A stretch of DNA of 64,000 nt from an uncultured Chloroflexia bacterium (GCA_963776285.1 CAVZLW010000007.1:185415-249414); one strand, 5' to 3'; shown: positions 36,955 to 48,012, counted from the first letter of the stretch. The notes: a model not told the origin generated them from the sequence alone. A program made the numbers and translations.

Positions 36955-39855
36955 TCACCGCCAGTTCGGGTCGAGGTTCCTGCCACCCCGGGTGGGCATC
37001 AGGTCGCGCGCACCCGTCCCGTCGGCGTTGACCACCCACAGATGGTACCCGTCGCCCGTGCTCGCCCGGTAGAAGGCGATCTGCCTGCCGTCGGGCGACC
37101 AGACCGGATTGCCGTCCTGGACCGCGTTGTGGGTCAGCCGTCTCGTGACCCTCTTCGTCGCCACGTCGAGCAGGTACACGTCGTTGCTGGCGTCGTCGAT
37201 GCCGTCACCCCGGACGAAGGCGATCGTTCGCTGGTCCGGGGACCAGGCGGGGTTTCGCTCGGAGGCGGGGCTGGTCGTCAGCCGCTCGTACCCGCTGCCA
37301 TCCGGCCGGACGATCGCGACGTCGTAGCCGGAGGTGCCTTTCGGATCGAGGTTCGCGGTGAGGGCCAGCATCGTCCCGTCCGGCGACCAGGCCGGCGACC
37401 GGAGCCGGTATCCGTGGACGACCTCGTGCGCGCCGGATCCATCGCTCCGGATCACCCAGATGGCCGAATCTTTGCTCGGCGGGACGGTTCGGACGAAGGC
37501 GATCCAGCCATCCTTCGACCAGGCCGGGAAGTAGTCGTCGGCCCGTCCACTCGTCAGCGGCCGCTCGGAGCCGTCGGCTTCGCGAATGTAGATGTCGCGC
37601 GTCCCGTTCACCTTGCGGGTGAAGGCGATCTGCCGGTAATCAGGCGACCAGGTCGGGAAGGTGTCGTCGACGCCGTTGTGCGTGAGCTGCGTGGTCTTCC
37701 CCGAAGCCGGGTCGAGAAGATACAGCTCGTTGTCGGTCTGGTTGGACCCGGGCTCCAGGTTGCTGTAGAAGAGGATGCCGGGCGAGACGGGCGCAGCCGG
37801 CGCGGGGGCGGCCGAACCGGGAGCCGCGGACCCGGGGGCTGTCGAACCGGGGGCGACTGATCGGGGACTGCTGCCGCTCGACGCGGCGGTCGTCGGCGAG
37901 TAGTCGCTCCGGGCCTCCCTGCCGGACGTGCGGCCGACCGCCGCCACCTCGACGCGCGTCCGATCCCCGATCTCGAGCGCCGCCCGGATCGAGCCATCGG
38001 CGGCGGCAACCACCGTCCCGGCCGGGTTCGCGTCGAGGGAGAGGTCGACATCCTCACCGCGGGTGAAGCCCGTCCCGGTCACCAGGACGGCCCTGCCCGG
38101 CAAGGTGCTCGCCGCGGAGACGGCGATCGAGGCGCCCGTGTCCGTCGGAAGGACGGCACGCCCGATGATGAGCAGGACGACGACGGCCGCGAGGCCCAGG
38201 ACGATGCGCCGCCATCGGAATCGCGCAGGCAGGGGTGACGCCTGCCCTGGGAGCGGGCGGGCCGCCGGCGCCGGTTCGGGCGCCCGCATGGTCAGTGGGC
38301 CGATCGCCGGCGCCGGTTCGGGCGCCCGAGTGGTCTGAATTGGCTGTCGATCCTCGTCGCCATCCGCCCCGGCTGCGCCCAGCCGATCCAACCCGGCGGC
38401 CGCGGTGGTCCCCGCGAGGGCAGGCCCGGGGAGCGCGTCCTCGGCCTCCTTCGGCCCGGGGAGCGCCGCCTCGGCAGAGCCGCCCGCGGGTGGCAGGGCC
38501 GGGATGGGGACGCCCTCCTCGGTCATGCTGGCGGCCGCGCCCGCGGCGACCGCAGCCACGGGAAGGACACCTTCGGGCGGCGAGGTCCCGGGGAGGGCGC
38601 CGGGCTGCGCGTCGGTCACCTGGAGCTGGCCGTCGGGCTGGCTGGTGTCGGCCGGGACGGTCGCGGCCGCAGCGGCGGCGGCTCCCGCCGGGACCGGGTC
38701 TGGGCTCGACGCCACCTTGGGCGGCAGGTCCTGCGGGTCGCGCCGCGGGATCGCGGCGGCGTTCGCCACGTCGAAGAGCTGGCCGTCGGCCACCCGCATG
38801 AACAGGACGGGCGTTCCCCACTCGACGTCGTTCTGGTCGGCGTAGATGGCAAGGCGCGCCTCCGCAACCGCCGAATTGACGGGCCGACCCTCGGCCAGCA
38901 TCGAGTAGAACTCCCCCGCGAAGAGGACCGCCGCACGGTCCGTGATCTCGAACTGCATCCCGATCACCGCGGGGATCTCGCGCTGGACCAGGCTCGTGGC
39001 GACCCCGGAGAACGGGTCGTCCACCGAGTTGCGGGCGCCCTCGCACGAGTTGAGCAGGACGAGTCGCAGCGACACCTTGTCGTGGAGGATGGTCGCGATC
39101 TGGTCCCCGCTCACCGGCCGGCCCCGACCGGCCTCGTCCTCGAAGAGGAGTGCTCCCTCGCCGCTCGCGTCGTCGAATCCGCCGTGGCCGATGTAGTGGA
39201 TGATGTGGTACTCGTCGGACCTGAGCGTGCGGGCCAGGGCCAGCAGGCTGGCCTCCTCGAGCCAGTCGACGGAGACGGCCTTCGCATCGATCACGGGGCG
39301 GAGCGCCTCCTCCAGCCGGGTCCGCTCCAGTCCCGCGTCGAGCTGCCCGGCGTCGGAAGGTGCGCTGACGATGCCAAGGATCCGGAGCGGGAGCTCCACC
39401 TGGAGCGGCCGGCGGGGCTTCGGGACGTCGAGGTAGCGGACAACAGGGGTCCATGTCGAGATCGACAGGAAGTCGGGCTCGTCGAAGAGGTACTCCCATG
39501 GGATCCCACCCAGCTCGGGCACCTCGCTCAGCGACAGGGTGACCCGCAGCCCCTGCCCCGCGGTCCGGGCCTCGCCGAGGCATGTGCGATAGAGCTCGTC
39601 GACCTTGCCCGAGATGAGGGCCGAGAACAGCCGGCCGCCGAATGCTCGCGCAAGCCCCATCTCGGGCGACTCGATGCGACGGACGCCGCGGCGAGTTCGT
39701 CCGACCTTCAGGACGAAGTTCTCGAGCTCCGTCGCGGTGAACGGCGCGGCGAACGTGCCGGGCGCCTCACCCCCGAGCCCGCTGGCCGCGACTCGGTAGG
39801 ACCCCGGGGTCGCTCCCCGCTCGATGCGCAGGCGAAACTCCGCGTAGGTCGTCAT
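36955..39855 (-). CDS. CHAT-domain (caspase-like peptidase) protein with Pro/Ala-rich linker, single TM helix and C-terminal TolB-like (PD40) beta-propeller
   Basis: The N-terminal region (YAEFRLRIERGATPGSYRVAASGLGGEAPGTF) is typical of standalone CHAT proteins. The CHAT His/Cys dyad is HIIHYIGHGGFD...LVLLNSCEGAR. A TM helix (RFRWRRIVLGLAAVVVLLIIG) is preceded by a basic patch, which places CHAT in the cytoplasm. There are five or more PD40 repeats (FPTWSPDYRQIAF, FPAWSKDGWIAF, SPAWSPDGTMLAL, NPAWSPDQRTIAF, NPVWSPDGRQIAF). Confidence 0.8.
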   Translation of the reverse strand: MTTYAEFRLRIERGATPGSYRVAASGLGGEAPGTFAAPFTATELENFVLKVGRTRRGVRRIESPEMGLARAFGGRLFSALISGKVDELYRTCLGEARTAGQGLRVTLSLSEVPELGGIPWEYLFDEPDFLSISTWTPVVRYLDVPKPRRPLQVELPLRILGIVSAPSDAGQLDAGLERTRLEEALRPVIDAKAVSVDWLEEASLLALARTLRSDEYHIIHYIGHGGFDDASGEGALLFEDEAGRGRPVSGDQIATILHDKVSLRLVLLNSCEGARNSVDDPFSGVATSLVQREIPAVIGMQFEITDRAAVLFAGEFYSMLAEGRPVNSAVAEARLAIYADQNDVEWGTPVLFMRVADGQLFDVANAAAIPRRDPQDLPPKVASSPDPVPAGAAAAAAATVPADTSQPDGQLQVTDAQPGALPGTSPPEGVLPVAAVAAGAAASMTEEGVPIPALPPAGGSAEAALPGPKEAEDALPGPALAGTTAAAGLDRLGAAGADGDEDRQPIQTTRAPEPAPAIGPLTMRAPEPAPAARPLPGQASPLPARFRWRRIVLGLAAVVVLLIIGRAVLPTDTGASIAVSAASTLPGRAVLVTGTGFTRGEDVDLSLDANPAGTVVAAADGSIRAALEIGDRTRVEVAAVGRTSGREARSDYSPTTAASSGSSPRSVAPGSTAPGSAAPGSAAPAPAAPVSPGILFYSNLEPGSNQTDNELYLLDPASGKTTQLTHNGVDDTFPTWSPDYRQIAFTRKVNGTRDIYIREADGSERPLTSGRADDYFPAWSKDGWIAFVRTVPPSKDSAIWVIRSDGSGAHEVVHGYRLRSPAWSPDGTMLALTANLDPKGTSGYDVAIVRPDGSGYERLTTSPASERNPAWSPDQRTIAFVRGDGIDDASNDVYLLDVATKRVTRRLTHNAVQDGNPVWSPDGRQIAFYRASTGDGYHLWVVNADGTGARDLMPTRGGRNLDPNWR

Positions 39856-40063: not shown

Positions 40064-41416
40064 CTAGGCGGGCAGGATGTTCTGGTTCACGTGGAAGAGG
40101 TTCGCCGGGTCGTATCGCTTCTTCACCTGGGACAGCCGTTCGTAGTTGCCCCGGTACGTGGCACGGACCCGTTCCTGGCCCTCCTCCATCATGAAGTTCA
40201 CGTACGCACCGCCGGCGGAATACGGGTGCACCGCGTCCCAGTAGGCGACCGCCCAGCGCCTGAGCAGGTCCACGTTGGCCGGATCGGGATCGACGCCGGC
40301 GATCACCTGGGCGTACTTGGCATCCCGATAGGCCCACGCCGTCGCGTCGTTGGCGGGACGAGATGCCGCGCCGTTGACGGGGTAGATGTGCGACGTCGAC
40401 TTCATGGTCGGCAGCTGGCTGCCGTGCTCGACGTGGCGCTCGATCGCCTCGTCGGTCAGGTCGTTGATGAAGTCGGCGCGCCAGTACCACTGGTCGCCGG
40501 CGGGATAGAGCGGATCGAAGGCGCTCTGCCAGGCGGGGAACGGCATCGGCGCGATTCCGTCGAGGGCGGGCGGCCCGAACGCCCGGACCGGGGCCAGCGC
40601 TGCCTCGGCCCCGTCCGCGGGTCCCGAATAGCACCACACCAGCGCGCACATCTTCCTGAGGTGAAGCTCCTCGGGGAACGGCGGGCCCGGCGGCACGGTG
40701 AGCCAGGCGAAGAACGCGCTCAGATCCTCGGGCGCATCATCGATGAACGTGTTCCAGAAGCGCATGACGTCGCGCGCCATCTCGAGGGGATAGAGCGTCG
40801 GCCCGGCGTAGACGGTGCTCACCGGGTGCAGCCGGAAGAGGAACGAGGTGACGATCCCGAAGTTGCCGCCGCCACCACGGATCGCCCAGAAGAGGTCGGG
40901 GTTGGTCTGGCTGTCCGCGGTCACCGTGCTGCCGTCCGCGAGGACCATGTCGGCTGCCAGGAGGTTGTCGATGGTGAGGCCGAAGTGGCGGGTGAGGTGG
41001 CCGATCCCGCCTCCCAGCGTCAGTCCGGCCACGCCCGTCGACGCGATGGTCCCGGACGGCGTCGCCAGGCCGAACTCGGCCGTCGCCCGGTCCACCTGTC
41101 CCCAGGTCGCTCCGCCGCCGACGCGCGCGGTGCGGGCGACCGGATCGACGTCCACGGAGTCCAGCCCGGACAGGTCGACGACCAGTCCGTCGTCGACGAT
41201 CCCGAGGCCGCCGGCGTTGTGGCCGCCGCCGCGCACGGCGACGGCGATCCCGCCCGCGCGTGCGAATTCGACCGCGGTCACGACGTCGGCCACGTCGGCG
41301 CACCTGGCGATCAGGCGGGGCCGCCTGTGGATCATCCCGTTGTAGACCTGTCGTGCCGCGTCGTACCCCGCGTCATCGGGGCCGATGAGCTGGCCGTGGA
41401 ATCCCGTGGGACGCAT
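40064..41416 (-). CDS. FAD-linked oxidase (PCMH-type FAD-binding with BBE-like C-terminal domain)
   Basis: RBS GAGAGGGGGG. FAD-binding region AVAVRGGGHNAGG...WAIRGGGGNFGIVTSF. The C-terminal YDPANLFHVNQNILP is BBE-domain-like. Confidence 0.8.
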   Translation of the reverse strand: MRPTGFHGQLIGPDDAGYDAARQVYNGMIHRRPRLIARCADVADVVTAVEFARAGGIAVAVRGGGHNAGGLGIVDDGLVVDLSGLDSVDVDPVARTARVGGGATWGQVDRATAEFGLATPSGTIASTGVAGLTLGGGIGHLTRHFGLTIDNLLAADMVLADGSTVTADSQTNPDLFWAIRGGGGNFGIVTSFLFRLHPVSTVYAGPTLYPLEMARDVMRFWNTFIDDAPEDLSAFFAWLTVPPGPPFPEELHLRKMCALVWCYSGPADGAEAALAPVRAFGPPALDGIAPMPFPAWQSAFDPLYPAGDQWYWRADFINDLTDEAIERHVEHGSQLPTMKSTSHIYPVNGAASRPANDATAWAYRDAKYAQVIAGVDPDPANVDLLRRWAVAYWDAVHPYSAGGAYVNFMMEEGQERVRATYRGNYERLSQVKKRYDPANLFHVNQNILPA

Positions 41417-41691
41417 GGGAACCCCCCTCTCGGCGCTCGAACGCACCCTTCGGGCGGGTCGGTCTCGCCATTGGCCCGGGCGCGACGATCTGGGCGACCG
41501 CATGGGGACGCCGCGCCGGTAGGAGTCGGGACTCCCGTGCCTCCCACCCGATCGACGAATTGTGCGCTCGCAGCCCTGGAATGGGTAGCCCCAAGCTGGC
41601 CCGCATCGCCCGGCGGCCGCGAGGCGCCCTCGGCTGCCGCGTCCCCGGCGGCCGGACGGAGCGCTCCGGGCGCCGGCCCGAGATTGCCTGC

Positions 41692-42468: not shown

Positions 42469-42698
42469 GCCCGGGACTATATGTGACCTTCTGGTCACCT
42501 GTCAAGGGTCGTCTTCCAGCGTTGGTGTCCAGCGTGCGGGTCGAACCGCGTGTGGCGACCAGCGGTCCGGTGTCGGTTGTCGCCCGGGTCTTCGCCCTCC
42601 GAAGCCCGGGAGCGCGCGCTCGGCGCAGTCGGCGGCCCGCAGCGCCAGGGACCTCCGCCAGGAAAGTCCGCGGCCGAGCGGCCCTCGTCACCTAGGAT

Positions 42699-43982
42699 GT
42701 GGCAATGTCCGGGAGCGCGCAGCAGACGGTCCTCGTCCTGTTCGTCGCGTTCCTCGTCGCATTGCCGCTCGTCGCGTTCGTCTCGGGGAGGCTGCGACTC
42801 CCGTACACCGTCGTGCTCGTCGTGGTGGGGCTCGTCGTCTCGGCACTCCCGATCCGCGAGGGCATCCAGCTCTCGCCGGAGCTCGCCGTCACGGTCCTCC
42901 TGCCGGGCCTGGTCTTCGAAGCCGCATATCGGCTCGACGGCGACGAGCTCCGGCGGTCGTTCGGCGGCGTCGCACTCCTCGCGGTGCCCGGTGTCCTCGT
43001 CACTGCGGCGGCGGTCGCCTTTGTCCTGAACGCTGCCACGGGCCTGCCCGTCAACGAGGCGTTCCTGGTCGGGGCGATCGTGTCGGCGACCGATCCCGTC
43101 GCCGTGGTCAGCACGATGCGGCGGCTCAACGCTCCCAGACGGCTGGTCACCCTCGTCGATGCGGAGAGCCTCTTCAACGACGGGACGGCGGCCCTCACCT
43201 TCGTCGTTGCGCTCGCGGCGCTCGGCAGCCGCCCGCCCACGATCGAGGAGGACATCCTGCAGTTCGCGGTGGGCCTGATCGGCAGCATCGTCATCGGCGC
43301 GGTCGCAGGCTTCCTGGTGTCGCGGACGCTGAAGGCCACGAACGACCACCTCATCGAGCTCACGCTCACGTTGCTGGCCGCCTACGGGACCTACCTCGTC
43401 GCGGACCTGCTGAACGAGTCGGGGATCATCGCAAGCGTCGTTGCCGGGATCGTCGTCGGCACCTATGGCCGCCGCGCGGGCATGAGCCGGCGAGCCGAAG
43501 AGGCGATCGACGTCGTCTGGGAGTTCCTTGCGTTCGTCCTGACCGGTGCCGCGTTCCTGCTCATCGGCTTCGCGATCCCGCTGAGTGCGCTGACCGCGGC
43601 CGCCTTCTCCATTGCCTGGGGCGTCGTCGCGGTGCTGGTGGGGCGTGCCATCGTCGTGTACGGCCTGCTGGGCGGCACGGCCCGGCTGGGGCACCGGGCC
43701 GGGCTCGGCCGCTCGCTGCCGCTGTCCTGGCTCCACGTCATGAACTGGACCGGGCTGCGCGGTGCCGTCGCGACGGCGCTCGCGCTGTCGATCCCCGAGG
43801 GCACGCCCGACCGCGAGCTCCTCCAGGGGATCGTGTTCGGGATCGTCCTCTTCACGCTCATCGTCCAGGGGACGACCGCCGAGCGGGTCCTGCGATGGGC
43901 GCGCGTGCACGGAGACGAGGACCTGGAGGATCCGGCCCAGCTGCGGGAGGCGGGGTCGGCCGACGACAGGGCGCCGTGGTGA
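42699..43982 (+). CDS. Cation:proton antiporter (CPA1/NhaP-type Na+/H+ exchanger)
   Basis: Conserved ATDPVAVVS motif (TDP of Na+/H+ exchangers). ~12 TM helices. Confidence 0.8.
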   Translation: MAMSGSAQQTVLVLFVAFLVALPLVAFVSGRLRLPYTVVLVVVGLVVSALPIREGIQLSPELAVTVLLPGLVFEAAYRLDGDELRRSFGGVALLAVPGVLVTAAAVAFVLNAATGLPVNEAFLVGAIVSATDPVAVVSTMRRLNAPRRLVTLVDAESLFNDGTAALTFVVALAALGSRPPTIEEDILQFAVGLIGSIVIGAVAGFLVSRTLKATNDHLIELTLTLLAAYGTYLVADLLNESGIIASVVAGIVVGTYGRRAGMSRRAEEAIDVVWEFLAFVLTGAAFLLIGFAIPLSALTAAAFSIAWGVVAVLVGRAIVVYGLLGGTARLGHRAGLGRSLPLSWLHVMNWTGLRGAVATALALSIPEGTPDRELLQGIVFGIVLFTLIVQGTTAERVLRWARVHGDEDLEDPAQLREAGSADDRAPW

Positions 43983-44249
43983 TCCCCGCCACGAGCAGCC
44001 GTAGGCCGGAGCGACTGCCACGCAGAAGTGAACGGCGACGGCCGACCGGCCGCCGTGCTCGACCCGAGACGGGTGGGATGGCGAGCGGGCTTCAACGGGC
44101 CGTCTCGCGGGTAGCCCATCGTCTTCTTGACCGCACCGCGATGCGCGCCTTAGCGTTGTCGTGCGCAGAGGTCGACGGGGTCGATGCGCCGCCGGCAGGG
44201 CGGCGAGGATGCGCGACGGATGTCGCGCGGTCGAGGGATGGGGGCAGCG

Positions 44250-47168
44250 ATGCGCATCGTCGTCACGCACGGACGCGACCAGGCATTCCAGATTCCCGAG
44301 ACGATGGGTCGTGCGTGGGCGGATGCCCTCCGCCACGGTCTCCGCTCGGCCGGCTACGCGCGGCCGGACGACCTCGACGTGCGGTTCGCGTTCTACGGCG
44401 ACCTCTGGAGGCCCGACCGCCGCGAGCCGGCCGACGACGAGCGCGGCGGTGGCGTCGAGCCTGACGCCCTGAGGGCGCCGCCGACCGCCATCCAGGCGGC
44501 GATCGGCGCCGAGCTCCTCGGACCGCGCCCGGACGCCGAGCGGATCGAGTGGCAGCGCCTGGGACAGGTGGTCCGCGCGCTCGACGACGTGTTCGGTGTC
44601 GGGGAAGTGCTGCTCACGCAGTTCATGGGTGACCTGGACGAGTACTTCCGGGACGCGGACCTGCGGGCGACGGTGCTCGAGCGGGTGGCCCAGGTCTGCC
44701 AGGCGGACGCTGAGCCGGTGCTCCTCCTCGGCCACAGCATGGGAAGCATCGTGGCCTATGACCTCCTCGCGACGCGCGGGGCGCGACCGCTCGGGGTCGC
44801 CGGACTCGTGACGTTCGGCTCCCCGCTCGGCATGAAGAGCCTTCATCGGCACGTGGATGACCTTCACCCCGGAACGCCGTTCCCGGCAGGTCTCGCCGCC
44901 TGGACCAATGTCTTCAATGCGGAGGACTTCGCGACCGTCGTCCCTTCCCTGGCGCCCCTGTTCCCGGGCGTCGGCACGCGGCATGTGAAGGACGTGGGGG
45001 CCGAGGGTCGGGAGCCGTCCTTGCTCTCGCCCGGTGAGGGCCACGACCCGATCGTCTACCTCAGCTCGATGGCACTGGGCCGCGCAGTCCGCGAGATGCT
45101 CGAGCCGGTTCTTGCCGCGCCCGTCGTAGCGCCGCCGCCGCCGGCCGTACCCGCCCGATCGATCCCGCGGACGGGCGGTCCCGTTGCGACCCCGTCGGCG
45201 GGCGCGCCGGCACCGCAGCCGACCAGGGCGATGCCGCCGCAGGCCGCGCGCCCGGTCCAGGCCGAGCCGCCGCGGCCGACCAGGGCGATGCCGCCGCCGC
45301 CGGCCACTCGTCCGGTCCAGGCCGAGCCGCCGCCGCCGAACTTGCATGGGACGCCTCCGCGGCAGTTCGCGCGTCCGGTCCAGGCCGAGCCGCCGCGGCC
45401 GACCAGGGCAATGCCGCCGCTGCAGGTCGAACCGCCGATAGAGGCTGTCGCCGCGCCGCCGCCCGTGGCCGCGGGCGGAGACCGCGGGGGCCTGGCCGCC
45501 TCGCCCGGCGGCTCCGGCGGCGCCCCGGCACCCGTCCTGGTGCGCGGTAGCGACGAAGCGCTGGCCGTCCCGGGGACCGCCACCGCCCCCGCGACGAAGA
45601 CCGTCGAGCGGGTCGCGTCGGCAGACTTCCCGCCCGTGGTCCTGCCCGGCAGCACCCACGACCTGCTCTTCGCCATCGGCGCCGCGGCCGCCTTCGCTCG
45701 CGCGGCCGACGTGGCGCTCGTCGTGCCGGCAGAGCAGCGGACGCTGGACCTTCGCGTCGGCGTCTACGCCCAGGACTTCGACATCCGGGTCGGCGACGAG
45801 GATCTCACCTGGCAGGCCATCACGATCAACCTGGATGACGCGTCGAGGAGCGTCTCCCGGACGTTCGCGCTGACGGCGCACGATGTCACCGAGAAGCGCG
45901 AGACGACGATCTACCTGACCGTCTACCGCGACAGCCTGCCCGTCGCCCAGGTGGCCCTCGTGACCACGATCGACCCGGCCTTCCAGCCGCTCCGGGCGTC
46001 GATCAGCCTGAACCTGGACGGGGCCGAGGATCCCGACTTCGTGCTGGTGATCATGGACCGCGGCAACCCGAAGGGCGAGGGGCCCTTCGAGATGTTCGTG
46101 AGCCAGAAGGGCGAGTTCGTCAACCGGCCGCTGGGCACGATGAACGTGACGATCAACGCCTGGAAGTACGCCCAGGACCGCCTCGCGGGCTTCAAGAGCG
46201 TGCGCGACGGAGCGACGGACAGGATGCGGTTCAACCGGGCAGAGAGCTTGGGACTCGCGCTCTGGCGGGACCTGCCGCCCGACTTCCAGCGCTTCTACTG
46301 GGACGAGCTCCACGGGCACGACTGGTCCATCGCCATCTACTCGCAGGAGCCGTACATCCCGTGGGAGCTGGTCCGCCCCCAGAAGGAGAGCGGGGAGCAG
46401 GCCGACTTCCTCGGCATCTCGTTCAGCATGGCCCGCTGGAAGCAGGCCGTCCGCTTCCCGGATCCGCTCGTGGTCTCGGGGTTCTCCGTCATCGCACCCG
46501 TGTACACCGAAGTGTCGGGCGCTCCGCCGCTGCCCGGCGCGCAGGAGGAGGCCGACGCGCTGGTCGCGACGTTCGGGGCCACGCGGATCGCCGGCGAGCT
46601 CGCCGCCGTGACCGAGCTCCTGGAGTCGACGCGGGGCGTGCAGCTCATCCATTTCGCGGGGCACGGCGATTTCGACCCCGAAGCCGACACCGACACGGTG
46701 ATCAAGCTCGCCGACCAGTCGCTGGTCCCGGAGGACATCTACCGGGCGAACCTCGGCCGGGCCTCGCGGCCCCTCGTGTTCCTCAACGCCTGCGAAGTTG
46801 GCGAGGAGGGCTGGTCGCTCACGCGGATCGGCGGCTGGGCCGAGGCGTTCACCGACGTCGGATTCTCCGGCTTCGTCGGGCCGTACTGGGCGGTCAACGA
46901 CACGGTCGCGCGCAAGGCGGCGCTCCTCTTCTACGGCGCGCTGCGCGACGGGGCGTCCGTCGGCGAGGCCCTCCAGGCGATCCGTCGCCAGTTCTACGAC
47001 GAGCCGGACGAGAAGTACCGGGGCCACCCGAGCTGGCTCGCCTACACGCTCCACTGCCAGCCGAACGTGCACATCACGATCCCGGCCGCCGGGGTCGCGA
47101 GCAATCCGCCAGCGCCAGGCACCTCCGGGACAGGCGATCCCCTCGCCGCGCCCGGCGCGAAGCCCTGA
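44250..47168 (+). CDS. Multidomain protein: N-terminal alpha/beta-hydrolase (GHSMG serine esterase/lipase-like), Pro-rich tandem-repeat linker, central unknown domain, C-terminal CHAT (caspase-like) domain
   Basis: MRIVVTHG... start with GGGGG RBS. Nucleophile elbow is VLLLGHSMGSIVAYDLL. About 4 tandem ~20-aa repeats (PTRAMPPQAARPVQAEPPR). The CHAT His/Cys dyad is LIHFAGHGDFD...LVFLNACEVGEEG. Confidence 0.75.
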   Translation: MRIVVTHGRDQAFQIPETMGRAWADALRHGLRSAGYARPDDLDVRFAFYGDLWRPDRREPADDERGGGVEPDALRAPPTAIQAAIGAELLGPRPDAERIEWQRLGQVVRALDDVFGVGEVLLTQFMGDLDEYFRDADLRATVLERVAQVCQADAEPVLLLGHSMGSIVAYDLLATRGARPLGVAGLVTFGSPLGMKSLHRHVDDLHPGTPFPAGLAAWTNVFNAEDFATVVPSLAPLFPGVGTRHVKDVGAEGREPSLLSPGEGHDPIVYLSSMALGRAVREMLEPVLAAPVVAPPPPAVPARSIPRTGGPVATPSAGAPAPQPTRAMPPQAARPVQAEPPRPTRAMPPPPATRPVQAEPPPPNLHGTPPRQFARPVQAEPPRPTRAMPPLQVEPPIEAVAAPPPVAAGGDRGGLAASPGGSGGAPAPVLVRGSDEALAVPGTATAPATKTVERVASADFPPVVLPGSTHDLLFAIGAAAAFARAADVALVVPAEQRTLDLRVGVYAQDFDIRVGDEDLTWQAITINLDDASRSVSRTFALTAHDVTEKRETTIYLTVYRDSLPVAQVALVTTIDPAFQPLRASISLNLDGAEDPDFVLVIMDRGNPKGEGPFEMFVSQKGEFVNRPLGTMNVTINAWKYAQDRLAGFKSVRDGATDRMRFNRAESLGLALWRDLPPDFQRFYWDELHGHDWSIAIYSQEPYIPWELVRPQKESGEQADFLGISFSMARWKQAVRFPDPLVVSGFSVIAPVYTEVSGAPPLPGAQEEADALVATFGATRIAGELAAVTELLESTRGVQLIHFAGHGDFDPEADTDTVIKLADQSLVPEDIYRANLGRASRPLVFLNACEVGEEGWSLTRIGGWAEAFTDVGFSGFVGPYWAVNDTVARKAALLFYGALRDGASVGEALQAIRRQFYDEPDEKYRGHPSWLAYTLHCQPNVHITIPAAGVASNPPAPGTSGTGDPLAAPGAKP
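45216..45440 (+). repeat. Tandem ~60-bp coding repeats (about 3.5 copies) encoding the Pro-rich linker of the hydrolase-CHAT protein
   Basis: Repeated ccgaccagggcgatgccgccg...cgtccggtccaggccgagccgccgcg units are visible directly. They translate to PTRAMPP(Q/P)xxRPVQAEPPR. Confidence 0.7.
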
Positions 47169-47181
47169 AGGAGACCGACCG

Positions 47182-48012
47182 ATGACCGACACCGACCCCG
47201 GCGCGAGGGTCTTCCGCCGGCTCAGCGCGACGGGCGAGGGACATGACTTCGACGACCCGACGCTGACCGAGATGGCCACCTCTTTGGCTGCCGACGGCGA
47301 CCGGGAGCTGACGGGGGACCGCGGCGGTGACACGAGCGCGGCGCCGTTCGACCTCGGCATCCCCGCGCCGCGGGCGGTCGACCTCCTGGCCCTCTGGAAG
47401 CTGACCGGCAAGCAGCCCGACCCGATGGTTCTCGCGACGCTCGGGCCGCGGACGCCGATCCTCCTGTCGCACGCCGTCACGGCCTTCCCGGCACCCGGCA
47501 AGCCGCCGCGCGTGTGGGGGATCAACTACGCGAGCTCTTTGTTCGACGTGGACGCGACGACGGTGGACCTGGCCCCGACGAGCGAGCTGCTCGACGTCCT
47601 CAAGGTGGATGCGACGGCCGGGCTCAGCATCGGGCTCGGCGGCGAGCTGAAGGTGCCACCCGTCGCGATCGCCGCGATCCAGCAGGTCCCGGGCGTGACG
47701 CTCAATGCCGCGACGGTCGGCGGCAGCATCAATGAGACGGCGACGCTCCAGATCGACTTCACCATGTCGGTCCCGAAGGTGATTGCGGGCCCGGACGCGT
47801 CAGGCGGGGCCCGCTGGCAGCTCTACGCGCAGGACCGCGCCCTCAACGGCTACCAGGCGCTGCTCCAGACGGTGCTCCTCCCGCCGGGCGTCCGCGCCAT
47901 CCGCGTCGACATCGTCGCGTCGGTGGCTGCCGCGGGCTGGTTCGGCCCGAAGGAATGGACCTACGCGACCGAGTCGTTCCAGGTCTCGCTGGATGGGCTT
48001 CCGAACCCCTGA
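47182..48012 (+). CDS. Hypothetical protein, tightly linked downstream partner of the hydrolase-CHAT gene
   Basis: ATG 14 nt after the CHAT gene stop, with a GAAGGAGA RBS. 276 aa with balanced composition (W/F/Y/K present). No family recognised. Confidence 0.6.
   Translation: MTDTDPGARVFRRLSATGEGHDFDDPTLTEMATSLAADGDRELTGDRGGDTSAAPFDLGIPAPRAVDLLALWKLTGKQPDPMVLATLGPRTPILLSHAVTAFPAPGKPPRVWGINYASSLFDVDATTVDLAPTSELLDVLKVDATAGLSIGLGGELKVPPVAIAAIQQVPGVTLNAATVGGSINETATLQIDFTMSVPKVIAGPDASGGARWQLYAQDRALNGYQALLQTVLLPPGVRAIRVDIVASVAAAGWFGPKEWTYATESFQVSLDGLPNP

Follow-up and report, generated by a model that had tools for sequence, protein, structure and literature searches.

The stretch of DNA analysed here, 64,000 nucleotides from an uncultured Chloroflexia bacterium (GCA_963776285.1, CAVZLW010000007.1:185415-249414) and referred to as the window in the following, encodes on its minus strand a 966-residue protein that we named CHAT-B. 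In this protein, a CHAT protease domain, a long linker, a single transmembrane (TM) helix, an Ig-like domain and a TolB-like propeller are joined in one polypeptide (Table 1). On the plus strand of the same window lie a second CHAT gene, ABH-CHAT-A, and, after it, the gene of a 276-residue protein of no known family, p276. We find that CHAT-B belongs to a family in which a constant N-terminal CHAT module is combined with a freely swapped C-terminus, most often a TM helix with a ligand-binding ectodomain, and that the second CHAT gene is a conserved partner of CHAT-B.

The window has a G+C content of 70-75%, and spurious long open reading frames (ORFs) are frequent there. The database holds a protein identical to CHAT-B (P0001) as well as homologues that align with it over their full length at 51-54% identity and 100% query coverage, and for these reasons the CHAT-B ORF is regarded as a real gene rather than a high-GC artefact. 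The ORF and its coordinates had been put forward in an original prediction made from the sequence alone, and both hold as given. Overlapping long ORFs in other frames or on the other strand were rejected as high-GC artefacts, because the genes that they overlap in antisense or out of frame have clear homologues.

Architecture of the CHAT-B protein

The N-terminal part of CHAT-B matches the Pfam CHAT family (PF12770) at residues 87-344 with an E value of 9e-29 and 101.2 bits, against a cutoff of 24, and CHAT-B has the caspase-hemoglobinase fold. Its motifs HYIGHG and LNSC, which contain His224 and Cys271, correspond in an alignment to HFIGHG and LNAC of SAVED-CHAT, a protease of solved structure (8tl0). 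Neither residue varies in 81 members of the family, which come from several phyla, and His224 is likewise invariant in an alignment of 73 sequences. Judged from its sequence, CHAT-B carries the intact His/Cys active site of a predicted caspase-like protease. The canonical CHAT domain of the original prediction was thus recovered with a profile hidden Markov model, and the alignment, in which a loss of the catalytic residues would have been visible, shows the dyad present throughout. Residues 1-372 were modelled with AlphaFold2 from 73 homologues, with a predicted local distance difference test score (pLDDT) of 90.6 and a predicted template modelling score of 0.91. The two short uncertain regions of the model are the segment after the catalytic Cys and an Arg-rich loop at residues 52-66 (pLDDT about 62), GRTRRGVRRIESPEM, in which R55, R59, S63, P64 and E65 are each at least 90% conserved. 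Against PADLOC-DB 2.0, CHAT-B gave only partial matches confined to the CHAT domain, to SAVED_CHAT (E 1.8e-14) and BovA (E 2.3e-9), and beyond this shared domain no known anti-phage defence system of that database was matched.

The protease module is followed by the long Pro/Ala-rich linker that had been predicted, with 25% Ala and 18% Pro over residues 366-552. In homologues the segment between protease and membrane is 30 to 260 residues long, and its sequence lacks conservation. A single segment of CHAT-B is strongly hydrophobic, its Kyte-Doolittle mean over 19 residues being 2.82 compared with 1.25 for the runner-up, and a second AlphaFold2 model (residues 540-966, pLDDT 88.8) has a helix at 548-567. 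The sequence RFRWRR, with four Arg residues, directly precedes this segment, while a flank count finds no Lys or Arg after the 19-residue window; on the outer side there are an Asp and one Arg, R566, which lies within the segment close to the outer end. All 44 PD40-type homologues (44/44) likewise have a single TM-like segment, with a mean of 4.4 Lys/Arg residues in the N-terminal flank versus 0.6 in the C-terminal flank. By inspection, the CHAT-B N-terminus is hydrophilic and contains no signal peptide. From the hydrophilic N-terminus and the positive-inside rule it follows that the CHAT domain and the linker should be cytoplasmic, and the Ig-like domain and the propeller outside; a single-pass protein with CHAT inside and the propeller outside is thus strongly inferred from the charge bias. 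The single positive-inside helix of the original prediction agrees with these results, and neither a missing TM helix nor an opposite topology emerged when hydropathy and charge bias were examined.

The C-terminal domain had been described as a PD40/TolB-type propeller with five or more blades. Pfam PD40 matches CHAT-B in four stretches (E 5e-31), DPPIV_N was also matched, and in the AlphaFold2 model the propeller has six blades and 24 strands with pLDDT values above 90. It superimposes on TolB (2hqs, 1c5k) with 2.4 A over 275 columns at 24% identity (Foldseek). CHAT-B shares the six-bladed PD40 propeller with TolB of the Tol-Pal system, but it lacks the TolB N-terminal domain and has no tol-pal genes nearby. 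Moreover, the NCBIfam TolB model (TIGR02800) is matched with an E value of 1.6e-40 over model positions 256-418 only, i.e. in the propeller, and the 139.3 bits stay below the cutoff of 343. In the host, a Chloroflexota member, a classical Tol-Pal context is probably lacking. An Ig-like sandwich at residues 576-652 separates the TM helix from the propeller; this domain was absent from the architecture first predicted, and it also occurs without a propeller in family members such as P0037, P0038 and P0042.

Table 1. Positions of the genes and protein features discussed in the text, counted from the first nucleotide of the window
Feature	Position	Strand	Basis
CHAT-B, whole gene: CHAT / TM / Ig-like / TolB-like propeller	36955..39855	-	ORF listing, Pfam, homologues
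Stop codon of CHAT-B	36955-36957	-	ORF listing
Conserved cytoplasmic N-terminal module, residues 1-362: three-stranded beta meander, helices, CHAT caspase-like fold	38770..39855	-	
Arg-rich conserved loop GRTRRGVRRIESPEM, residues 52-66	39658..39702	-	Conservation, pLDDT about 62
Predicted catalytic His224 codon, motif HYIGHG	39184..39186	-	Alignment to 8tl0 His; invariance
Predicted catalytic Cys271 codon, motif LNSCEG	39043..39045	-	Alignment to 8tl0 Cys; invariance
Pro/Ala-rich linker, residues 363-547 (185 residues), cytoplasmic, presumably disordered	38215..38769	-	Composition
Single TM helix, residues 548-567, WRRIVLGLAAVVVLLIIGRA, N-in/C-out	38155..38214	-	Kyte-Doolittle, AlphaFold2, charge bias
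Ig-like beta-sandwich, juxtamembrane, extracytoplasmic, residues 576-652	37900..38130	-	AlphaFold2: seven strands, pLDDT 90-97
Short Ser/Pro/Ala-rich linker, residues 658-678	37822..37884	-	pLDDT below 50, sequence
Six-bladed PD40/TolB-like beta-propeller, residues 694-964, extracytoplasmic	36964..37776	-	Pfam, NCBIfam, AlphaFold2, Foldseek
Partner gene ABH-CHAT-A: alpha/beta-hydrolase-like domain (GHS163MG), Pro-rich linker, middle domain, C-terminal CHAT (His805/Cys848)	44250..47168	+	Pfam, homologues
p276: 276-residue protein of no known family	47182..48012	+	Homologues after fusion genes

A constant protease module with many C-termini

A database search returned 1,498 relatives of CHAT-B. 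Among the best 120 of these 1,498 hits the N-terminal 362 residues are 55-77% identical, and across Chloroflexota and Actinomycetota 50-77%; beyond this module, the sequence changes throughout the family. Counting a single representative genome for each species, we found at least 571 loci with the module, mostly in Chloroflexota ('Chloroflexia', Limnocylindrales, Anaerolineales) and Actinomycetota (Solirubrobacterales, Gaiellales, Acidimicrobiia, Micropruina), with few in other phyla, and the nearest relatives all come from metagenome-assembled genomes of Chloroflexota, labelled 'uncultured Chloroflexia' or Candidatus Limnocylindrales. A profile search gave a total of 10,573 hits at E values up to 1e-30, which is an upper bound from a profile that held propeller columns; only the top 150 hits of this search, with at least 606 bits over the N-terminal module, are safe as members.

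An unbiased set of 127 further cluster representatives, taken at 50% identity from an exhaustive profile search, was used to survey what follows the module. At least one TM helix is present after CHAT in 99 of the 127: a single one in 88, with a median of 309 residues beyond it, and several in 11, while 28 have none. Since 88 of 127, about 70%, are single-TM proteins, a cytoplasmic CHAT domain tethered to an anchored outer domain is the commonest form of the family and no oddity. The membrane forms end in TM helix plus PD40, TM helix plus CBM9_1 (17/80), TM helix plus an Ig-like domain only, or bundles of four to eight TM helices; PQQ, WD40, TPR and FGE-sulfatase domains were found as well, and soluble members carry SIR2_2 (8/80), TIR_2, FHA or PAS. 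The PD40, CBM9_1, PQQ, WD40, TPR and FGE-sulfatase ectodomain types are used elsewhere as binding modules. The CHAT-TM-propeller arrangement, whose retention in orthologues had been proposed as a check, is kept by the 44 PD40-type homologues, with one TM helix each.

Two family CHAT genes lie close to each other, in some cases adjacent, at five loci (L041, L051, L058, L082 and L085), and their C-termini differ where readable. The upstream copy in L085 is split into a CHAT ORF and a PD40 ORF, possibly by a frameshift. Furthermore, members of the SIR2_2 type (L035:12656-16258; also L023, L024, L026, L036, L038, L043, L048 and L066) are directly followed by a gene for an approximately 1200-residue protein with an nSTAND1 nucleoside triphosphatase domain and WD40 repeats. 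This pair of a SIR2-type CHAT and an nSTAND1-WD40 protein looks like a separate defence-type two-gene unit that uses the same CHAT module.

The second CHAT gene and its linkage to CHAT-B

The original prediction had already placed a second CHAT gene at 44250..47168 and named the three genes that separate it from CHAT-B, encoding an FAD-oxidase, an ArsR-SRPBCC regulator and an NhaP antiporter, all of which were found. The product of the second gene, ABH-CHAT-A, whose start is likely at 44250, matches Pfam CHAT with an E value of 6e-20 and, weakly, PGAP1 and Hydrolase_4. A fusion protein encoded in L010, where the gene adjoins a CHAT-B gene, shares 43% identity with ABH-CHAT-A along the entire length, and the operon-type CHAT-A of L001 is homologous to the C-terminal half of ABH-CHAT-A (E 4e-23). 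The fusion family comprises 31 close members (P0172-P0202), and the CHAT His and Cys are invariant in all of them (31/31).

The ORFs within 10 kb of a family gene were clustered, for 84 loci and later for 88. One association stood out alone: in 25 of the 88 loci, CHAT-B lies beside a second CHAT as well as an alpha/beta-hydrolase domain, and this occurs in two forms. The first form consists of genes for CHAT-A (about 700 residues), DUF7379 (about 500 residues) and CHAT-B, usually as a tight operon on the same strand. DUF7379 stands beside CHAT-B in 20 of the 88 loci, from both Chloroflexota and Actinomycetota, and this form includes the TM-PD40 members of L001, L086, L004 and L020. In the second form, a hydrolase-CHAT-A fusion gene is directly followed by the gene of a p276-type protein of 260-290 residues that belongs to no known family. 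It is found in the window and in L005, L008, L009, L010, L088, L089 and L090, beside CHAT-B genes with varying C-termini. The genes of this form are directly adjacent to CHAT-B in L010 and L088-L090. L089 and L090 show the order fusion gene, p276 and then a convergent CHAT-B gene 5 bp away, and the convergent CHAT-B gene of L088, 19 bp away, encodes another TM-PD40 member. In addition, single proteins join the components: P0047 is a fusion of DUF7379 with CHAT-B, and L044 encodes a fusion of DUF7362, DUF7379, DUF7363 and CHAT-A.

Stand-alone DUF7379 is of the alpha/beta-hydrolase type, with an invariant HSRGG elbow whose Ser is kept in 19 of 19 sequences. An identity of the hydrolase-like domain in the window with DUF7379 was considered and rejected, as no homology was detectable (BLASTP E 1.6; no Pfam match); the two are treated as alpha/beta-hydrolase-type domains of separate families with the same role.

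p276 has homologues with 54-59% identity, of which two, in L009 and L010, are encoded immediately 3' of the fusion gene, and L008 encodes a third. The same arrangement is seen in L089 and L090, whereas in L088 the p276 gene stands after a truncated ORF of unchecked identity; wherever the fusion gene is seen complete, p276 lies directly 3' of it. The p276 family has 51 members, all annotated as hypothetical, and no Pfam, PDB, PADLOC or NCBIfam match was obtained for it; a gasdermin or another known effector was considered as well and is without support, in the absence of any sequence match in Pfam, PADLOC, NCBIfam or PDB. For ABH-CHAT-A and p276, PADLOC-DB 2.0 gave no match. The p276 proteins begin with a variable acidic segment of about 45 residues, which is followed by the conserved motif APFDLGIP.PRA.DLR.LWKL, and judged from this pattern the motif could be a processing or docking site.

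Conserved neighbours had been proposed as a further check, and the outcome is divided: the CHAT-A/hydrolase partner recurs, while the remaining context varies from locus to locus, and no conserved neighbourhood was found that belongs to the PD40 subtype alone. The rest of the 64-kb window was also searched for a further CHAT-B, DUF7379 or PD40 gene, and none was found. A 1676-residue ORF at 42495..47525 on the minus strand, antisense over the antiporter and partner-CHAT genes, was rejected as a gene, as the database matched it only with ORFs that lie antisense to these same genes in L009 and L010.

Several neighbours were recorded at individual loci. The CHAT-A of L057 carries TCAD7. An Hcp-family gene (T6SS_HCP, E 8e-20; L039:5608-6171) heads an operon of CHAT-A, DUF7379 and CHAT-B of the TM-CBM9 type in Micropruina and related Actinomycetota, with homologues in L047, L056, L058, L060, L062, L074 and L082. 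To our knowledge, a type VI secretion system would not be expected in these organisms. Pairs of genes for an extracytoplasmic function sigma factor and a TM-PD40 protein that resembles an anti-sigma factor (L002:7919-9825, L087:20577-22516) lie less than 10 kb from TM-CHAT-PD40 homologues, and in L084 a MoxR-DUF58 pair is located divergently upstream of the CHAT gene.

Comparison with known systems and possible function

The closest characterised precedent is HetF of Anabaena sp. PCC 7120, founding member and name-giver of the CHAT proteases, in which one TM helix joins an N-terminal CHAT domain in the cytoplasm to TPRs in the periplasm; it is a proven protease, is located at the septum, interacts with FtsI and cleaves cytoplasmic PatU3 (PMC8406250, PMC9457339). 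When overexpressed, the CHAT domain of HetF alone complements a hetF deletion (PMC9457339). CHAT-B resembles HetF in its N-terminal cytoplasmic CHAT domain, the single TM helix and an outer repeat domain, and Cys295 of HetF and Cys271 of CHAT-B have similar positions. The NCBIfam HetF model (NF045509) matches residues 71-360 of CHAT-B in register with HetF 72-383 (E 4.7e-17); the score of 61.6 bits is far below the cutoff of 1200, so that CHAT-B is a relative of HetF and not an orthologue. The two differ in that the outer part of CHAT-B is an Ig-like domain with a TolB-like propeller instead of TPRs, in that the hosts belong to different phyla, and in the linkage of CHAT-B to a second CHAT and a hydrolase, which is unreported for HetF. 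No division genes were seen near CHAT-B in the loci read, namely those of the window homologues (L001-L003, L084-L087).

A second precedent is provided by Kaur et al. (2020; PMC7159879), who described a 'System 4' in which a constant N-terminal caspase is combined with about 50 alternative C-terminal domains, a third of them with TM helices; in some cases a TM helix plus an extracellular PBP domain comes after the N-terminal caspase. The caspase of System 4 is paired with a 5' EACC1 gene, whose product has a single conserved TM helix, and auto-proteolytic effector release was proposed; in the MoxR-vWA-VMAP systems of the same study, caspase domains always come with a neighbouring alpha/beta-hydrolase. 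The CHAT-B family shares with System 4 the constant N-terminal caspase-superfamily module, the many C-termini, a third or more of them with a TM helix, the outer binding domains and the frequent occurrence in Actinomycetota. With the ternary VMAP systems described there it shares the neighbouring alpha/beta-hydrolase, seen as DUF7379 in 20 of 88 loci and in fused form in the window, and two caspase domains per system. TCAD7 and nSTAND1, accessory domains that stem from that work or entered Pfam through it, are shared as well. The text of Kaur et al. (2020) consulted here makes no mention of the PD40 ectodomain, of the hydrolase-CHAT fusion or of p276. No MoxR, vWA or VMAP gene was called in the window region, L001, L086 and L089; the divergent MoxR-DUF58 pair of L084 is the exception. 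No mention of DUF7379 or TCAD7 by name was found in the papers searched.

DdvA of Myxococcus xanthus, a transmembrane anti-sigma factor with a TPR-CHAT part, was proposed to transduce a signal across the membrane (PMC11506125; PDB 8rot). It is also a single-pass protein, with a CHAT His/Cys dyad and a flexible linker near the TM helix, but its topology is the opposite one, with a periplasmic CHAT domain and a cytoplasmic zinc anti-sigma output, in contrast to the cytoplasmic N-terminal CHAT of CHAT-B. In SAVED-CHAT (8tl0), the TPR-CHAT protein Csx29 of type III CRISPR and separase, sensor domains likewise switch on a CHAT protease; these proteins are, however, soluble, without TM helix or ectodomain, and answer to cyclic oligoadenylate, RNA-bound Cas7-11 and securin removal, respectively. 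According to Steens and colleagues in 2024, SAVED-CHAT reportedly starts a CHAT-to-caspase protease cascade. Receptor Ser/Thr kinases and anti-sigma factors of Actinomycetota with extracellular propellers, such as PknD of M. tuberculosis, resemble CHAT-B in being built from a cytoplasmic enzyme, a flexible linker, one TM helix and an extracellular six-bladed propeller. Their output part phosphorylates proteins or binds a sigma factor, where CHAT-B has a protease. The layout of CHAT-B is thus not new in kind, with HetF and the systems of Kaur et al. (2020) as precedents. What is new is the version with a PD40/TolB-like ectodomain and the fusion-p276 cassette, for neither of which a description was found in the literature, as well as the conserved gene linkage of CHAT-B with a second CHAT and a hydrolase.

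For the function of CHAT-B, we see about even chances that the outer domain binds an envelope ligand and controls the tethered protease through clustering, which would direct it at cytoplasmic targets, with the CHAT-A fusion and p276 as first candidates. The ectodomain would bind an envelope or extracellular ligand, be it a peptide, a cell-wall fragment or a foreign surface, and binding would change the oligomeric state or the position of the tethered CHAT protease. Caspase-type proteases are typically activated by induced proximity. Once activated, CHAT-B might cleave cytoplasmic targets, with ABH-CHAT-A and p276 as the likeliest partners or substrates, and the three proteins would make up a two-protease cascade. 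The SIR2 and TIR fusions together with the nSTAND1-WD40, TCAD7 and Hcp neighbours point to growth arrest or cell death in conflict or defence rather than to housekeeping. Signalling from an outside cue to an inside protease is plausible from this evidence, and anchoring or localisation is an equally simple reading, because the CHAT domain of HetF alone complements the hetF deletion (PMC9457339).

A more specific version, in which CHAT-B, the hydrolase-CHAT fusion and p276 constitute a previously undescribed outside-in protease cascade, appears unlikely to us with all of its steps taken jointly. The propeller would detect, for instance, that a phage or an epibiont attaches, that a competitor makes contact or that the wall is damaged, and clustering would activate CHAT-B as a membrane-tethered 'initiator'. 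The initiator would then cleave and activate CHAT-A as a cytosolic 'executioner', which might in turn process p276 near APFDLGIP.PRA and lead to growth arrest or cell death. If true, such a cascade would be the counterpart in bacteria of the signalling from death receptors to caspases, with the swappable ectodomains (PD40, CBM9, PQQ) as a receptor repertoire.

Several observations weigh against control of the protease by the outer domain and against the proposed partners. Ligand binding, activation and substrates of CHAT-B are all inferred, and the topology stems from the positive-inside rule and the absent signal peptide, not from a trained predictor. By analogy with HetF, whose CHAT domain works without TM helix and TPRs when overexpressed, the outer domain may only localise the protease. 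Since SIR2 and TIR C-termini are effectors, the equation of the C-terminus with a sensor cannot hold for the whole family. In the fusion family, 18 of 29 members retain the nucleophile Ser (GHSMG), which is Ser163 (44736-44738, plus strand) in the window copy; in the other 11 it is replaced by Gly, Asp, Ala or Arg, so that the hydrolase-like domain may be non-catalytic, and hence no enzyme, in many members. In the window, the partner lies 4.3 kb from CHAT-B on the opposite strand, with three unrelated genes between them, and co-regulation is therefore not evident. Moreover, a partner within 10 kb is present in only 6 of 11 PD40-type loci and is missing within that distance in L002, L003, L084, L085 and L087.

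A first competitor of ligand-controlled proteolysis is a HetF-like housekeeping protease that the TM helix and a wall-binding ectodomain merely hold at the septum or growth zone, where, with no outside signal involved, it would degrade a division or morphogenesis regulator as HetF degrades PatU3. HetF has the same layout and septal location, interacts with FtsI and functions as an overexpressed CHAT domain alone (PMC8406250, PMC9457339), its model matches CHAT-B in register, PD40/TolB and CBM9 are typical envelope-binding modules, and the very high conservation of the protease module across phyla fits a conserved cellular substrate. However, the score far below the HetF cutoff excludes orthology, none of the examined loci places CHAT-B in a division or cell-wall cluster, and the tandem paralogues, the SIR2/TIR fusions and the links to nSTAND1, TCAD7-CHAT and Hcp genes are, taken together, what marks conflict systems and not a housekeeping gene; we hold such an anchor to be possible, though rather unlikely. 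Autoproteolytic effector deployment following the logic of System 4 would instead have CHAT, activated by a partner, cut its own linker and free or unmask a C-terminal effector, which in the TM-propeller form could be a membrane stub with ectodomain that disturbs an envelope process in a dominant-negative manner. The constant caspase with about 50 C-termini and the proposed auto-proteolytic release of Kaur et al. (2020; PMC7159879) are paralleled by the CHAT-B family, with its SIR2_2 (8/80), TIR_2 and multi-TM C-termini, and by the long flexible linker between the protease and the rest of CHAT-B. Such a release is nevertheless improbable in our view: the linker, 30 to 260 residues long, has no conserved cleavage-site sequence, and PD40, CBM9, PQQ and TPR ectodomains are not toxic by themselves. 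In addition, no EACC1 gene precedes CHAT-B in the window, where 208 bp separate the FAD-oxidase stop from the CHAT start, and none is on record in seven other loci (L001-L003, L084-L087), whose 5' genes encode DUF7379, sigma-70, Peptidase_S8, MoxR or a product without Pfam match, with small unannotated ORFs not scanned in every one of the 88 loci.

The two CHAT genes of the window might also be unrelated neighbours, with the TM-CHAT-propeller protein acting alone. The distance of 4.3 kb, the opposite strands, the antiporter, regulator and oxidase genes in between and the 5 of 11 PD40-type loci without a partner within 10 kb are all in line with this. Yet the fusion gene and p276 recur by CHAT-B on at least seven independent contigs and adjoin it in L010 and L088-L090, CHAT-A, DUF7379 and CHAT-B recur together in 20 loci of two phyla, and fusion proteins join the components. 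This recurrence of the pairing makes a chance neighbourhood unlikely, and among the explanations considered here it is the one to which we assign the lowest probability.

Bacterial caspase-like proteases are known as cytoplasmic executors that answer internal signals such as cyclic nucleotides, CRISPR targets and NLR-like sensors. If CHAT-B is wired through the membrane to exchangeable outer domains, as ligand-controlled proteolysis would require, the family would represent a new route from cell-surface events to a caspase-type protease. The repeated pairing defines a concrete and widespread three-gene unit, found in the window at 36955..39855 and 44250..48012, and the compact arrangement of L089 is better suited for cloning. 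Even if CHAT-B should prove to be a HetF-like anchor, the family ties one characterised membrane CHAT protease to hundreds or more of uncharacterised relatives in soil Chloroflexota and Actinomycetota.

The gene directly upstream of CHAT-B on the same strand encodes the FAD-binding oxidase, with its start codon at 41416. A match to the c-di-GMP-II-GAG variant riboswitch (Rfam) was obtained at 41448-41553 on the minus strand; it covers model positions 1-86 of 86 with 41.7 bits, against a gathering threshold of 40, and ends 32 nucleotides upstream of this start codon.

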